Source of the DNA: Escherichia coli
Lineage (GTDB): Bacteria > Pseudomonadota > Gammaproteobacteria > Enterobacterales > Enterobacteriaceae
Assembly: GCF_030013595.1 (NCBI RefSeq)
Contig: NZ_CP122768.1
DNA length: 64,000 nucleotides
Reading direction: 5' to 3' (one strand)
Shown here: one piece after another, positions 1 to 38,416 of the stretch
How positions within the stretch are numbered: position 1 is the first letter of the stretch
How the letters are laid out: each line of letters opens with the position of its first letter
Translations under genes and position numbers: made by a program
Notes under the pieces: generated by a model
Told to the model about the DNA's origin: nothing
The model's input: only the letters and a program-made list of their open reading frames with translations
Database searches by the model: none

Positions 1-615
1 CGGCGCAAGCTGGCGCGAGAACAGGCCCATATAGGCGCACTCTTCCAGCACTACGGCATTATGCACCGCATCGGCGGCGTTTTTACCCCAGGCGAACGGG
101 CCGTGAGAATGCACCAGTACCGCCGGGATTTGCGCCGGACTCCTGCCGCGTTCTTCGAAAGTTTCAATGATCACTTCGCCGGTCTGGTATTCATACTCGC
201 CGTTGATCTCCTCTGCGGTCATCAGGCGCGTGCAGGGGATGGCACCATAGAAATAATCAGCGTGCGTGGTGCCCCAGGCGGGGAGATCCAGCCCGGCCTG
301 CGACCAGATGGTGGCGTGGCGCGAGTGGGTATGCACAATGCCACCGATTTCGGCATAGCGACGGTAAAGCGCCAGATGCGTTGGCGTATCGGACGAGGGC
401 TTTTTGCTACCTTCCACCACCTTGCCGCTGGCTATCTCAACCACCACCATATCGTCGGCGGTCATCACGTCGTACTCGACGCCGGAAGGTTTGATTACCA
501 TCCATTGCCGCGTTTCGTCTACCGCGCTGACATTGCCCCAGGTGAACGTCACCAGATGGTGAGCGGGAAGTGCCAGATTTGCCGCCAGCACGTCGGCTTT
601 CAGTTGCTCTAACAT
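1..615 (-). CDS. sgbE: L-ribulose-5-phosphate 4-epimerase, 5' portion only (gene runs off the window start)
   Basis: Minus-strand translation from the ATG near 615 reads [30 protein letters not shown]...; the listed + ORF 61..612 is its antisense shadow. Confidence 0.85.
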
Positions 616-1469
616 ATAAATCCAGCCTCCTGCATACGCGCTTCAATCCAGCGCCGCGCCTGAATAATCTCCAGCACCGGCTCTTTGGCTTTTTCGGTCC
701 ACATCTCAATCAGGAAAGAACCGCGATAGTTCAGTTCATGCAGCGTTTTGAAGATGCCAACGAAATCGACGCAGCCTTCGCCAAACGGCACATCACGGAA
801 CTGTCCGGGACTTTGCCCGGTGACTGGCAGGGTGTCTTTCAGATGGATTGCGGCAATACGGTCAATGCCCAGTTTCAGTTCGGCGGGAACATCATTGCCC
901 CAGGCGCTGAGGTTGCCGACGTCCGGGTAGACGGTGAACCACGGCGAGGCGAGCATCTCGTCCCACTTTTTCCATTTGCTGATGGAGTTCATAAACGCGG
1001 TATCCATAATCTCCACCGCCAGCATTACTTGTGATGCCGCCGCCTGTTCGACCGCCCACGCCAGCCCTTCAGCAAAACGTTGCTGGGTGCCTTCGTCGTG
1101 GTCTTCGTAATAGACGTCGTAACCTGCCAGTTGAATGGTGCGAATGCCGAGATCGCGCGCCAGGCGAATCGCTTTACTCATGATTTCCCGCGCCCGTTCG
1201 CGCACCGCCTTGTCCCGGCTGCCAAAGGGAAAGCGACGATGTGCGGACAGGCACATTGACGGAATGGCAACACCCGTTTCGATCATCGCGGCAACCAGCG
1301 AAGTCCTTTGTGTGGCGCTCCAGTCAAGGCGTGACAGACGCTCGTCAGTTTCATCCACCGACATTTCGACAAAATCAAAGCCGCAGCTTTTTGCCAGCAC
1401 CAGCCGCTCCGGCCAGGAGAGATCTTTCGCCAGCGCTTTTTCATAAATGCCTAACGGATGATTACGCAC
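609..1469 (-). CDS. sgbU: L-xylulose-5-phosphate 3-epimerase
   Basis: ORF 609..1559 trimmed to the GTG giving [13 protein letters not shown]... (286 aa), preceded by a GGGGAGG ribosome-binding site. Confidence 0.9.
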
Positions 1470-2124
1470 GCGCGCCTCCCCAGATGGCATCAATTTGCGC
1501 ATGGAAATCGCCAGCCACCTGCGCCGGATTTGCTGCGCCTGCCAGCGCCCGCCCGGCAATAAACGCTTTCACGCGGATATCTTTAAACAGCGGCAGGTCA
1601 GCAGGGGTAATCCCGCCGGTAATGGAAAGCTCAAGGCCGATATCGGAAAGTGCCTTCATGCGTGCCAGATCGGCTTCGCCCCACTGTTGCCCGCTGGCCT
1701 GTGCATCACGACCACGATGATAAATGGCCTGCCGCACGCCAATACGATGCCAGTCGCGGGCGTCGTCCAGCGTCCAGTTACCGAACAACTCGATCTGAAT
1801 TTCACCACCGCAGCGTTGCGCCATCGCGTGGCCTTTTTCCACCGTCGCGAGCGGCGCGGCGCAGATGATGGTCATCCAGTTGGCACCCGCGCCAAACGCC
1901 TGTTGCGCGAGCGTTTCACCAGCGTCGGCGACCTTCCAGTCAGCAACGATGATTTTGTCCGGGCATTGTTCGCGTAAGGCTTTCACCGCGCCAAGCCCTT
2001 CGTTTAAACAGAGAATGGTGCCTGCTTCGACGATATCGACGCTGTTTTTTAACAGCGTAACGTCGCGCTGTGCGTCTTCAAGTGATGAGTGGTCGAGGGC
2101 CAGTTGCAGAAGTGGTCGGCTCAT
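1462..2124 (-). CDS. sgbH: 3-keto-L-gulonate-6-phosphate decarboxylase
   Basis: 220-aa [22 protein letters not shown]..., OMP-decarboxylase-like; overlaps sgbU start by 8 nt. Confidence 0.9.
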
Positions 2125-9708: not shown

Positions 9709-10230
9709 ATGAAACATTCATTTGAAGTAAAACTTGCCGCTGTAAATCATTACCTGGCTGGTCATGCAGGCATCATTTCTACGGCAAAACTCTTTCAACT
9801 TTCTCACACCAGCCTCTCACACTGGATTAATCTTTTTCTTCTTCACGGTCCTCGTGCACTGGATTGCAGACACAAGCGTAGCTATTCTCCTGAAGATAAA
9901 CTTTGCGTGGTTCTTTATGCTCTCGGGCATTCTGAGTCTCTACCCCGGGTAGCTGCCCGGTTTAACATTCCCAGCCACAACACGGTTAAAAACTGGATAA
10001 AAGGCTACCGCAAATCTGGTAATGAGGCCTTTATCAGGCGCAGGAAGGAGAAAAGCATGACCCGTTCTGATGATACCCATGAAAACGAGGCAAACATGAC
10101 GCCGGAAGAGATGAAGAATGAGCTGCGTTATCTTCGCGCAGAAAATGCATATCTGAAAGCCATGCAGGAGCATCTCCTGGAAAAAAAGCGCCAGGAGCTG
10201 GAGAAAAAACGAAAGTCATCCGGAGCCTGA
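9709..10230 (+). CDS. insJ: IS150 OrfA (HTH DNA-binding protein)
   Basis: 173-aa ORF MKHSFEVKLAAVNHYLAGHAGIISTAKLF... ending in a leucine-zipper-like region. Confidence 0.85.
   Translation: MKHSFEVKLAAVNHYLAGHAGIISTAKLFQLSHTSLSHWINLFLLHGPRALDCRHKRSYSPEDKLCVVLYALGHSESLPRVAARFNIPSHNTVKNWIKGYRKSGNEAFIRRRKEKSMTRSDDTHENEANMTPEEMKNELRYLRAENAYLKAMQEHLLEKKRQELEKKRKSSGA
10183..10189 (+). promoter_or_regulatory. Programmed -1 ribosomal frameshift heptamer A AAA AAG
   Basis: Slippery A AAA AAG motif in the orfA frame (LEKKRQ) just before the orfA stop; the -1 frame continues into orfB. Position +/- 2 nt. Confidence 0.6.
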
Positions 10231-10334
10231 GGTGCGGACACTGCCAGTCTGACCTGTTAAAGGCTGCAGGGCTGGCCAGAAGCACGCTGTACTACCAGCT
10301 GTCACTGCAGAAGGCTAAGGACAAGTATGCTGAT

Positions 10335-11089
<755 letters not shown>

Positions 11090-17148: not shown

Positions 17149-18330
17149 TCAAGAACGGCGTTTGGTTGCGGAGTCCATCCATACTGCCAGCAACAGAATC
17201 GCACCTTTAACGATATACTGCCAGAAGGTCGGTACATCCATCATACTCATGCCGTTATCCAGTGAAGCCATGATGAATGCCCCCATTACCGCTCCGGCCA
17301 CGCTCCCGACGCCGCCTGCCAGACTGGTGCCGCCAATCACGCATGCTGCAATTGCGTCCAGTTCGGCGATATTTCCCGCAGAAGGTGAACCAGCGCCAAG
17401 TCGAGAACTGAGGATTAATCCGGCGATGGCTACCATTAATCCGTTAATTGCGAACACGGCAAGTTTGGTGCGTTCAACGTTAATCCCGGAGAGCCGTGCT
17501 GCTTCCAGATTGCCGCCGATGGCATAAATGCGTCGTCCAAATGCCGTCCGCGTTGCCATAAACATTCCGCCGAGTAACAGCAACGTCAGCAGCAGAACAG
17601 GAGTGGGAACGCCACGGTAATCATTCAACAGCCAGATTGCGCCTAATACGATGATAGCGGTTAAAGCCTGGCGACCGACTACTGCGGTAGAGGCCGGAGA
17701 CTGCAAACCCAAAGCCTGACGGCGCATTCTTCCGCGCCATTGCCAGCCAACAAAAGCCATTAAGCCAAGCGCGCCAATGATGAAGCCGGTGCTGGCAGGT
17801 AGATAGCTTTGCCCAATTTGTGACATCGCGGCGCTGGTGGGGGATACAGTCGTGCCGTTGGTGATGCCAATGAGTATGCCGCGAAATGCCAACATGCCCG
17901 CGAGGGTGACAATAAATGAAGGGACTTTACGGTATGCGACCCACCATCCGTTCCAGGCACCGAGAAGCAGTCCCAGAACCAGTGTTACAATGATGGTCAG
18001 TGGCAAAGGCCAGCCTAACCAGACGTCACAAATCGCCGCGACGCCACCTAACAGCCCCATCATTGAGCCGACGGAAAGGTCGATTTCAGCAGAAATTATG
18101 ACGAACACCATTCCTACTGCGAGGATGCCGGTAATCGCGGTCTGGCGTAACAGGTTGGAGACGTTACGGGCGCTTAAGTAGGCACCATCGGTGGTCCAGG
18201 TAAAGAACAGCATGATTGCGATGATAGCTGCAATCATCACGAAGACCTGCAAATTCAGTGACTTCAGCCCGGAAAAGTCACCGGATGTCGGTACGGCCAA
18301 TTTCACTTCAGACGGATTGCTTTTCGACAT
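17149..18330 (-). CDS. xylH: Xylose ABC transporter permease
   Basis: 393-aa hydrophobic ORF. Confidence 0.9.
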
Positions 18331-19849
18331 GATGTTCGCTCCTCAATGCGGCTTCCATCACCTGCTCCTGAGTCAGGTTATGATTTATCAGGTTGGCTTT
18401 TAGTTTCCCTTCATGCATCACCAGTACACGATCGCTAAGGCCGAGCACTTCAGGTAATTCGGAAGAGATGACAATAACGGCAATACCCTGCTGGACGAGT
18501 TGGTTAATTAATTTGTAGATCTCGTATTTCGCGCCAATATCGATACCCCTGGTGGGCTCATCAAGAATGAGAATGCGCGGGTTGAGTAACAGGCAGCGAG
18601 CGAGGATCGCTTTTTGCTGATTACCGCCGCTCAAACGTCCAATAGCAAGGTCGGGTGACGACGTTTTAACTTTGAGTTGCTGGATTGATTCCAGAATACA
18701 TTTTTGCTCTGCCGCGTCATCAAGCTGGCTAATACCGCCGGTAAATTTATTGAGTGCGGCGAGGGTAATATTTTTACCAACCGCCATTACCGGAACGATG
18801 CCGTCGCGCTTTCTGTCTTCGGGTACCATCGCAATCCCTTGGGCGATGGCTTGCTGACAGTTACAAATATCTACCTGTTTGCCATCAATATAAATTTTTC
18901 CTTCCCATTGTCCGGGCCACACGCCAAACAGGCACTGAATGGTCTCGGTACGTCCGGCACCAACGAGTCCGGCAATACCCAGTATTTCGCCACGTTTCAG
19001 GGAAAACGAGACATCATTAACTCGTTTAATATGACGATTAACCGGATGCCATGCTGTCAGATGTTCAATACGTAATATTTCATCTCCGGTGGTATGTGGT
19101 TCATTAGGGTAAAGCGCGGTTAACTCTCGCCCGACCATCATGGTGATAATATCGTCTTCACTCATTCCGGCAGCATCACGCGTACCAATGTGCTGACCGT
19201 CGCGAATAACGCAAATCGTATCGGAAATCGCTTTGACTTCGTTGAGTTTGTGCGAAATATAAATACAGGCGATACCGTGCTGTTGTAGATCGCGAATAAT
19301 ATCCAGTAAAACCGACGTTTCCTGCTCAGTTAATGAGGCTGTCGGTTCATCGAGAATTAACAAGCGCACCTGTTTATTAAGTGCCTTGGCAATTTCAACC
19401 AGTTGTTGTTGCCCAAGCCCTAAATCGCCAACGCGGGTATCAGGTGAAATGGATAAACTGACCTGTGCGAGCAGCTTCTGACAGCGTAGCGTCATCAGGT
19501 CATAATCCATAATGCCATTGTGGGTTATTTCGTTACCCAAGAAGATATTTTCCAGCACGGTCAATTCTTTCACCAGGGCCAATTCCTGGTGAATGATGGC
19601 GATACCTTTGCGTTCGGTATCGCGGATGTGACTCGCCTGAATCTCTTCTCCCGCAAAAATAATTTCGCCTTCGTAGGAGCCATGGGGATAAATACCACAC
19701 AGCACTTTCATCAGCGTTGATTTACCAGACCCATTTTCCCCACAGAGTGAGACGATTTCGCCAGCATTCAACCGCAAGCTGACGTTATCAATCGCCTTCA
19801 CACTGCCGAAGGTTTTGGTAATGTTCTTCATTTCAAGTAGATAAGGCAT
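18308..19849 (-). CDS. xylG: Xylose ABC transporter ATP-binding protein
   Basis: 513-aa ORF with duplicated Walker A motifs ([18 protein letters not shown]); 23-nt overlap with xylH. Confidence 0.9.
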
Positions 19850-37717: not shown

Positions 37718-38416
37718 ATGATCATAAAAAAAAGCGGTGGTCGCTGGCAGCTAAGCCTGCTGGCGAGTGTGGTAATCAGTGCCTTTTTTCTCAACACAGC
37801 TTACGCCTGGCAACAAGAATATATCGTTGATACGCAACCCGGACATTCCACAGAGCGTTACACCTGGGATAGCGATCATCAACCTGATTACAACGATATT
37901 TTGTCGCAACGTATTCAAAGTAGCCAAAGGGCGCTGGGACTGGAAGTCAATCTGGCGGAAGAAACTCCTGTGGATGTGACCAGCAGTATGAGTATGGGCT
38001 GGAATTTTCCTTTATATGAGCAGGTTACAACCGGCCCGGTCGCGGCATTACATTACGATGGCACAACCACCTCGATGTATAACGAGTTTGGCGACAGTAC
38101 TACCACGCTGGCCGATCCGTTATGGCATGCCAGCGTGAGTACCTTAGGCTGGCGTGTTGACTCCCGGCTTGGCGATCTCCGACCCTGGGCGCAAATCAGC
38201 TATAACCAGCAATTTGGCGAGAATATCTGGAAGGCGCAATCAGGCCTGAGCCGGATGACGGCGACAAACCAGAACGGCAACTGGCTGGATGTCACCGTAG
38301 GCGCTGATATGTTGCTCAATCAAAATATTGCCGCCTATGCGGCGCTATCTCAGGCAGAAAATACCACTAACAATAGCGACTATCTGTATACGATGGGGGT
38401 TAGTGCCAGATTTTAA
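37718..38416 (+). CDS. yhjY: Outer-membrane beta-barrel (autotransporter-like) protein YhjY
   Basis: ORF 37712..38416 trimmed to MIIKKSGGRWQLSLLASVVISAFFLNTAYA... (232 aa), ending in aromatic F. Confidence 0.8.
   Translation: MIIKKSGGRWQLSLLASVVISAFFLNTAYAWQQEYIVDTQPGHSTERYTWDSDHQPDYNDILSQRIQSSQRALGLEVNLAEETPVDVTSSMSMGWNFPLYEQVTTGPVAALHYDGTTTSMYNEFGDSTTTLADPLWHASVSTLGWRVDSRLGDLRPWAQISYNQQFGENIWKAQSGLSRMTATNQNGNWLDVTVGADMLLNQNIAAYAALSQAENTTNNSDYLYTMGVSARF

Follow-up and report, generated by a model that had tools for sequence, protein, structure and literature searches.

Three long same-strand gene overlaps in the xyl, bcs and sgb operons of Escherichia coli: start codons, conservation and expected coupling

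Three pairs of adjacent genes in a 64,000-nucleotide stretch of Escherichia coli DNA (the window) overlap by more than the usual 1 or 4 nt: xylG/xylH by 23 nt, bcsZ/bcsC by 19 nt and sgbH/sgbU by 8 nt. Very probably these are genuine, annotated operon overlaps with correctly chosen start codons, and they are best read as lineage-specific arrangements kept by dual-coding constraint, not as devices for especially tight translational coupling. The evidence comes from comparison of the three junctions across genomes, from the ribosome-binding sites and alternative starts around each downstream initiation codon, and from published work on coupling as a function of the distance between stop and start.

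The overlaps in the window and in existing annotation

The window is a segment of the E. coli chromosome. A 3-kb query had matches in 5,416 of the 5,426 complete genomes of E. coli, the best of them (99.9%) in a pig isolate, and the orientation of the window is opposite to the K-12 coordinates 3.685-3.750 Mb. Direct reading of the coding strands, in agreement with the ORF lists, confirmed the three overlaps at the lengths proposed in the first-pass annotation. In each pair both genes lie on the same strand, the downstream start is 5' of the upstream stop, and the reading frames differ, as seen in the sequence, the ORF lists and the annotations (Table 1).

Table 1. Coordinates in the window of the overlaps, coding sequences and ribosome-binding sites discussed in the text.
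Feature	Position	Strand	Detail or basis
xylG/xylH 23-nt overlap	18308-18330	-	xylH ATG 18330-18328; xylG TGA 18310-18308
xylH CDS, 393 aa, xylose ABC transporter permease	17149-18330	-	ORF and annotation
xylG CDS, 513 aa, xylose ABC transporter ATPase	18308-19849	-	ORF and annotation
xylH Shine-Dalgarno GAGGAG, within xylG coding sequence	18339-18344	-	8 nt upstream of ATG
bcsZ/bcsC 19-nt overlap	61520-61538	+	bcsC ATG 61520-61522; bcsZ TAA 61536-61538
bcsZ CDS, 368 aa, periplasmic endoglucanase	60432-61538	+	ORF; start mapped from closest-strain PGAP annotation and K-12 length
BcsC signal peptide coding region, 23 aa, followed by APTAQQ	61520-61588	+	Translation
sgbH/sgbU 8-nt overlap	1462-1469	-	sgbU GTG 1469-1467; sgbH TAA 1464-1462
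sgbU CDS, 286 aa, L-xylulose/L-ribulose-5-phosphate 3-epimerase	609-1469	-	K-12 and closest-strain annotation
sgbU Shine-Dalgarno GGGAGG	1475-1480	-	5 nt upstream of GTG; anti-SD duplex -11.3 kcal/mol
sgbU/sgbE 7-nt overlap (ATGTTAG)	609-615	-	K-12 and NZ_CM149870.1 annotation, sequence

The same overlaps are found in the RefSeq annotation of K-12 MG1655, in which xylG occupies 3732201-3733742 and xylH begins at 3733720, bcsZ begins at 3689155 and bcsC extends to 3689173, and sgbH extends to 3749239 and sgbU begins at 3749232. The closest strain, NZ_CM149870.1 (annotated by PGAP), is collinear with the window over the first ~25 kb only, and its sgbU, sgbH, xylH and xylG coordinates are identical to those of the window. 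Entries for these genes in Table S2 of Huber et al. (2023) likewise give -23 for xylG-xylH, -19 for bcsZ-bcsC, -8 for sgbH-sgbU and -7 for sgbU-sgbE. All three overlaps are already annotated and catalogued for E. coli and are an ordinary feature.

Among the co-directional overlaps in the window, six measure 4 nt and one measures 1 nt, followed by one each of 7, 8, 19 and 23 nt. The 1-nt overlap, bax/baxL, is annotated in K-12 only. The 7-nt overlap, sgbU/sgbE, is a fourth non-canonical case that the first-pass annotation did not contain, and an AGGAGG site lies 10 nt upstream. The overlaps studied here belong to a minority class. In the survey of 1,695 species by Huber et al. (2023), overlaps of 10-60 nt were ~4-fold rarer than the 4/1/8-nt class. 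Each overlap follows from two well-supported ORFs, so that chance is hardly at issue. Canonical 4-nt (ATGA) and 1-nt (TGATG/TAATG) overlaps, of which trpB-trpA is an example and lyxK/sgbH, dppD/dppF, bcsE/F/G and tag/yiaC are the canonical examples in the window, are likewise formed by co-directional operon neighbors with the start 5' of the stop in a different frame. In contrast, the overlaps studied here measure 8, 19 and 23 nt, and their stop and start codons share no bases.

Other features were recorded in this region. The convergent genes yiaC and bisC overlap at their 3' ends by 32 nt in K-12 and in the closest strain (37898-37929 in the latter, with window coordinates shifted by ~1.3 kb). 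A transposase gene of the IS3-family element IS1397, with a programmed frameshift, occupies positions 9709-11057 of the window between ysaA and avtA; it is also present in NZ_CM149870.1, and none is found at the K-12 site. From about 25166 the window is free of the ISVsa5 insertion that splits wecH in NZ_CM149870.1, and it also lacks the ISKpn26 insertion that this strain carries near bcsE. The annotations of K-12 and of the closest strain both list bcsQ, which lies upstream of bcsA (at ~54.7-55.5 kb in the window by mapping), as a pseudogene containing an internal stop.

Start codons at the three junctions

Long apparent overlaps may arise from mispredicted starts, a recognised source of such cases (Huber et al. 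2023 mentions annotation errors), and the first-pass annotation had offered this as the alternative to real overlaps. Under that reading the overlaps would be annotation artefacts and the true starts would lie downstream, at the GTG of xylH codon 9, at Met18 or Met20 of bcsC and at a later start in sgbU. For xylH the geometry is inviting, as the in-frame GTG at 18306, one base past the xylG stop, would give a non-overlapping spacing of +1. The comparisons below make mis-chosen starts extremely improbable.

A xylH start further upstream is impossible, because an in-frame TGA lies five codons upstream of the ATG. The Shine-Dalgarno sequence ahead of the ATG is predicted to form an anti-SD duplex of -8.5 kcal/mol, whereas the downstream alternatives, GTG at codon 9 (-0.1 kcal/mol) and TTG at codon 11 (-1.9 kcal/mol), have no usable Shine-Dalgarno sequence. 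Nearly all XylH homologues in other genera are 393 aa long with the N-terminus MSKSNPSE. Comparison of the proteins showed these first eight residues to be nearly invariant and residues 9-25 to be freely variable.

The xylG/xylH junction was compared using one genome per species, giving 80 loci from ~30 genera of Enterobacteriaceae, or 81 with the window. The placement of the ATG and the TGA, and with it the 23-nt overlap, was identical in 79 of the 81 loci; in the other two, from two species of Buttiauxella, a new TAA reduced the overlap to 14 nt. The AGGAG motif was invariant in all 81. Codon 9 of xylH, the candidate downstream start, was GTG, ATC, ATG, CTG, GCG, CTT or GTA depending on the genus and is thus not conserved as a start, in contrast to the upstream ATG, AGGAG and the eight N-terminal codons.

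The sequence of the overlap itself also bears the marks of two reading frames. Third-codon-position entropy within the 23 nt was 0.38 bits in the xylG frame and 0.43 bits in the xylH frame, as against 1.01 bits in the upstream xylG flank and 1.36 bits in the downstream xylH flank, a signature expected if both frames are translated. In the xylG frame, the xylH Shine-Dalgarno sequence is formed by an AGG (Arg) and an AGC/AGT (Ser) codon, and AGG was never exchanged for a synonymous codon. AGG is the rarest arginine codon of E. coli. The C-terminal tail of XylG is conserved as well (...RSE(H/R)HVEKQSV). Within the species, the 55-nt xylG/xylH junction was identical in 4,582 E. coli genomes, and the remaining 833 with a match showed 95-99% identity. 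As judged from these comparisons, the annotated ATG is the correct xylH start.

The bcsC start is similarly bounded. Given in-frame TGA codons at -15 and -27, no start 5' of the ATG at 61520 is possible. The next in-frame ATG codons, Met18 and Met20, are both missing in Klebsiella, and initiation at either would remove the charged and hydrophobic parts of the BcsC signal peptide. The N-terminus MRK[FL][TS]L... is conserved in Escherichia, Salmonella, Klebsiella, Enterobacter and Cronobacter. A review describes signal-peptide cleavage of BcsC, which resides in the periplasm and the outer membrane; in structural work the mature N-terminal domain was represented by residues 21-179 and 24-709, and the PDB chains that match BcsC begin at query residues 20-24. 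The ATG...TAA arrangement with its 19-nt overlap was kept in all four loci compared (Salmonella diarizonae, Klebsiella, Cronobacter condimenti and one further locus), and the 55-nt bcsZ/bcsC junction was identical in 5,159 E. coli records. The annotated ATG, needed for the signal peptide, is by these sequence criteria the correct bcsC start. Its ribosome-binding site is poor, with an AGGA that abuts the ATG and a GGGG further upstream (-5.6 kcal/mol, awkward spacing), so that some reliance on the translation of bcsZ is conceivable.

Two variants of this junction were encountered. Eleven E. coli plasmid records (e.g. NZ_CP142679.1, 50181-50235) carry a bcsZ/bcsC junction ~96% identical to the chromosomal one, which indicates that some bcs operons are plasmid-borne. 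In Salmonella (loci L083 and L086, ~1525-1595), the part of bcsC that encodes the signal peptide is interrupted after codon 9 by 66 inserted nucleotides. The insertion folds as a REP-like hairpin, and the predicted N-terminus reads MRKFTLSLMHAFLPAGGRNALPGKRGVSRALLGLSLGMALTPLAGA, then ATS; the 19-nt bcsZ/bcsC overlap is still present in these genes.

For sgbU, the GTG is preceded by the strong Shine-Dalgarno sequence listed in Table 1, and the other in-frame candidates upstream (ATG -7 and -11; TTG -8 and -30) have weak sites. No in-frame start occurs between codons 2 and 23. The alignment of SgbU with UlaE (crystal structure 3CQH) begins at residue 3, and the conserved fold starts at residue 3-5. 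Homologues across Enterobacterales are mostly 286 aa long with a conserved N-terminus (13 aa), and a GGAGG- or GGGG-type motif precedes sgbU in other genera too. These features argue for the GTG as the correct sgbU start.

Unlike the start, the end of sgbH is not fixed. In a cross-genus sample of five loci, the sgbH/sgbU spacing, -8 in E. coli, was -1 (TAATG) in Kluyvera and Mangrovibacter, -4 in Hafnia, +1 in Yersinia and +2 in Erwinia; the position of the sgbU start is retained and the sgbH stop drifts between genera. The E. coli state looks like the outcome of losing an ancestral TAATG, with the sgbH frame running on to the next stop. The resulting junction, GTGCGTAA, has exactly the form NTGNNTGA/TAA of the -8 nt overlaps, which rank third in frequency in E. 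coli as well as in prokaryotes at large (Huber et al. 2023).

Two proteins from ENA metagenome assemblies (P0248 and P0250) are single ORFs of 473 and 457 aa in which the SgbH (OMP decarboxylase) and SgbU domains are fused. Programmed frameshifting into SgbH-SgbU fusions was considered and rejected, as neither a slippery motif nor conservation supported it; the fusion ORFs are most likely assembly indels at the 8-nt overlap.

Every comparative test supported the chosen starts, and the independent annotations (K-12 RefSeq and PGAP) agree with them, so the suspicion of misplaced starts raised by the first-pass annotation was not upheld. Conservation of the overlap among orthologues, which it had proposed to check, was seen for xylG/xylH (79/81) and bcsZ/bcsC (four loci); in sgbH/sgbU the start is kept and the stop drifts. 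The reading of the overlaps as artefacts of mis-chosen starts appears largely refuted, and all three downstream starts are correct on comparative and sequence evidence. In standard media the xyl, bcs and sgb operons show little or no expression. A literature search found neither start-site profiling nor N-terminal proteomics that covered xylH, bcsC or sgbU, and nothing relevant on the xylG/xylH overlap or start codon, and xylH, bcsC, sgbU, xylG and bcsZ were all absent from the TRAINSPOTTER N-terminomics supplements.

Lineage distribution and maintenance of the overlaps

The spacing between MglA-type ATPase genes (COG1129) and xylH had a median of -0.4 with quartiles of -3.4 and +11.9 (n=514 syntenic pairs). 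Two distant XylGH loci had spacings of -4 and +13; a third outgroup locus runs off the contig end, so that its junction is absent from the sequence. The junctions of paralogous sugar ABC transporters in K-12 were +14 (araGH), +15 (mglAC), +4 (rbsAC), +10 (ytfRT) and -22 (alsAC). The family median and the other K-12 paralogues indicate that a long overlap is not a family trait. The alsA/alsC overlap is likewise an ATPase-to-permease junction of the same transporter family, with an independent sequence, and other long same-strand overlaps of similar length and independent sequence occur in K-12 at otsB/otsA (-26), alsE/alsK (-17) and ytfT/yjfF (-14). The -23 state is thus, as far as these comparisons indicate, specific to the Enterobacteriaceae lineage, unusual but not exceptional.

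The lineage-specific reading follows from the presence of -23 throughout Enterobacteriaceae as against -4 and +13 in the distant orthologues, and from the drift of the sgbH stop. Once established, the long overlaps would be held in place by dual-coding constraint; for xylG/xylH, the -23 spacing is plausibly held because most changes must suit two frames. The Buttiauxella variant at -14 shows that shortening of this overlap is possible.

The near-invariance of the -23 and -19 spacings could also reflect selection for the arrangement itself, beyond dual-coding lock-in. The overlap geometry would then be a selected device for tuning expression, in which, for example, xylG ribosome traffic over AGGAG sets the XylG:XylH ratio; in a variant of this idea, burial of the bcsC start could hold down the synthesis of BcsC. 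The spacing is indeed nearly invariant, a rare AGG arginine codon always builds the xylH Shine-Dalgarno sequence in the 81 loci, and several genera share an identical bcsZ/bcsC overlap. However, dual-coding constraint alone predicts equal conservation, the two Buttiauxella loci tolerate the 14-nt version, and the K-12 paralogous sugar ABC transporter pairs range from -22 to +15. Selected geometry is therefore considered quite unlikely. For the conserved 23-nt xylG/xylH junction in particular, in which the ATG precedes the xylG stop by 20 nt, it is equally doubtful that it is a selected translational control element and not a frozen dual-coding accident. If it were one, interplay between elongating xylG ribosomes and xylH initiation could set the ratio of XylG to XylH synthesis, and the conserved bcsZ/bcsC junction of 19 nt, where the ribosome-binding site is badly spaced, might act similarly.

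Overlap length and translational coupling

The first-pass annotation had taken the long overlaps as a sign of tight translational coupling. Published reporter work does not support this equation. In their review, Brown and Wade (2025) place the most efficient coupling at -4 to +3 nt and note that coupling suffers more from a longer overlap than from a wider spacing; in the systematic series described there, overlaps beyond -4 brought a progressive loss of coupling, with none left at -25. That review also stresses the dependence of coupling on sequence context, and the distance series were obtained with other gene pairs and synthetic constructs. Huber et al. (2023) regard -8 to +6/+10 nt as the window indicative of termination-reinitiation, which excludes xylG/xylH (-23) and bcsZ/bcsC (-19) and includes sgbH/sgbU (-8) and sgbU/sgbE (-7). 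The published data predict weak reinitiation at xylG/xylH and bcsZ/bcsC, and of the three pairs only sgbH/sgbU would be a good candidate for tight coupling. The search for published coupling tests of xylG/xylH, bcsZ/bcsC or sgbH/sgbU found none.

It is accordingly rather unlikely, if slightly less so than selected geometry, that the -23 and -19 overlaps confer especially tight coupling through terminating ribosomes that move back to reinitiate. For this view, XylG and XylH belong to the same transporter as subunits, and complex subunits are overrepresented among overlapping pairs (Huber et al. 2023). Conservation is high for both geometries, and the weak bcsC ribosome-binding site could tie bcsC to the ribosomes translating bcsZ. 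Yet the reporter optimum lies at -4 to +3, with efficiency that drops as overlap grows and none at -25, and the distant XylGH orthologues stand at -4 or +13 with a family median of about -0.4. Membership in one heteromeric complex was found for one pair of the three: the corresponding entries in Table S2 of Huber et al. (2023) mark XylG/XylH as a complex and BcsZ/BcsC and SgbH/SgbU as not, and neither biochemistry nor cryo-EM detected an interaction between BcsZ and BcsC.

Folding analyses also gave no sign that upstream translation is required to open the downstream starts. In silico, 110-nt folds at the three junctions were no better than shuffled sequences (z +0.38, +0.35 and +0.94), that is, no stable RNA structure masks any of the starts, and dependence on upstream translation of the RNA-unfolding type is not indicated. 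In the classic case of coupling at a long overlap, the coat and lysis genes of phage MS2 (-50 nt), the downstream start likewise lies well inside the upstream gene. Coupling of MS2 lysis needs the terminating ribosome and RNA structure near the lysis start, whereas the junctions studied here have no unusually stable structure and each has a Shine-Dalgarno sequence of its own.

The preferred reading, of dual-coding overlaps that are not specialised for coupling, suggests the following model. Initiation at xylH would occur mainly by Shine-Dalgarno-directed binding of 30S or 70S ribosomes within the 3' end of xylG. Initiation at bcsC is probably directed in the same way within the 3' end of bcsZ, and would be inefficient and possibly aided by bcsZ traffic. 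At both junctions the contribution of ribosomes terminating 19-23 nt downstream is likely weak. At sgbU, the -8 spacing belongs to a class in which termination-reinitiation coupling is plausible.

These results have very little importance beyond annotation quality control: the three non-canonical overlaps are, by the comparative evidence, correctly annotated, and no start codon needs revision. Overlap length should not be taken as coupling strength. Across 81 species, xylG/xylH provides a clean example of dual-coding constraint, and sgbH/sgbU illustrates how a stop codon can drift while the start stays fixed.
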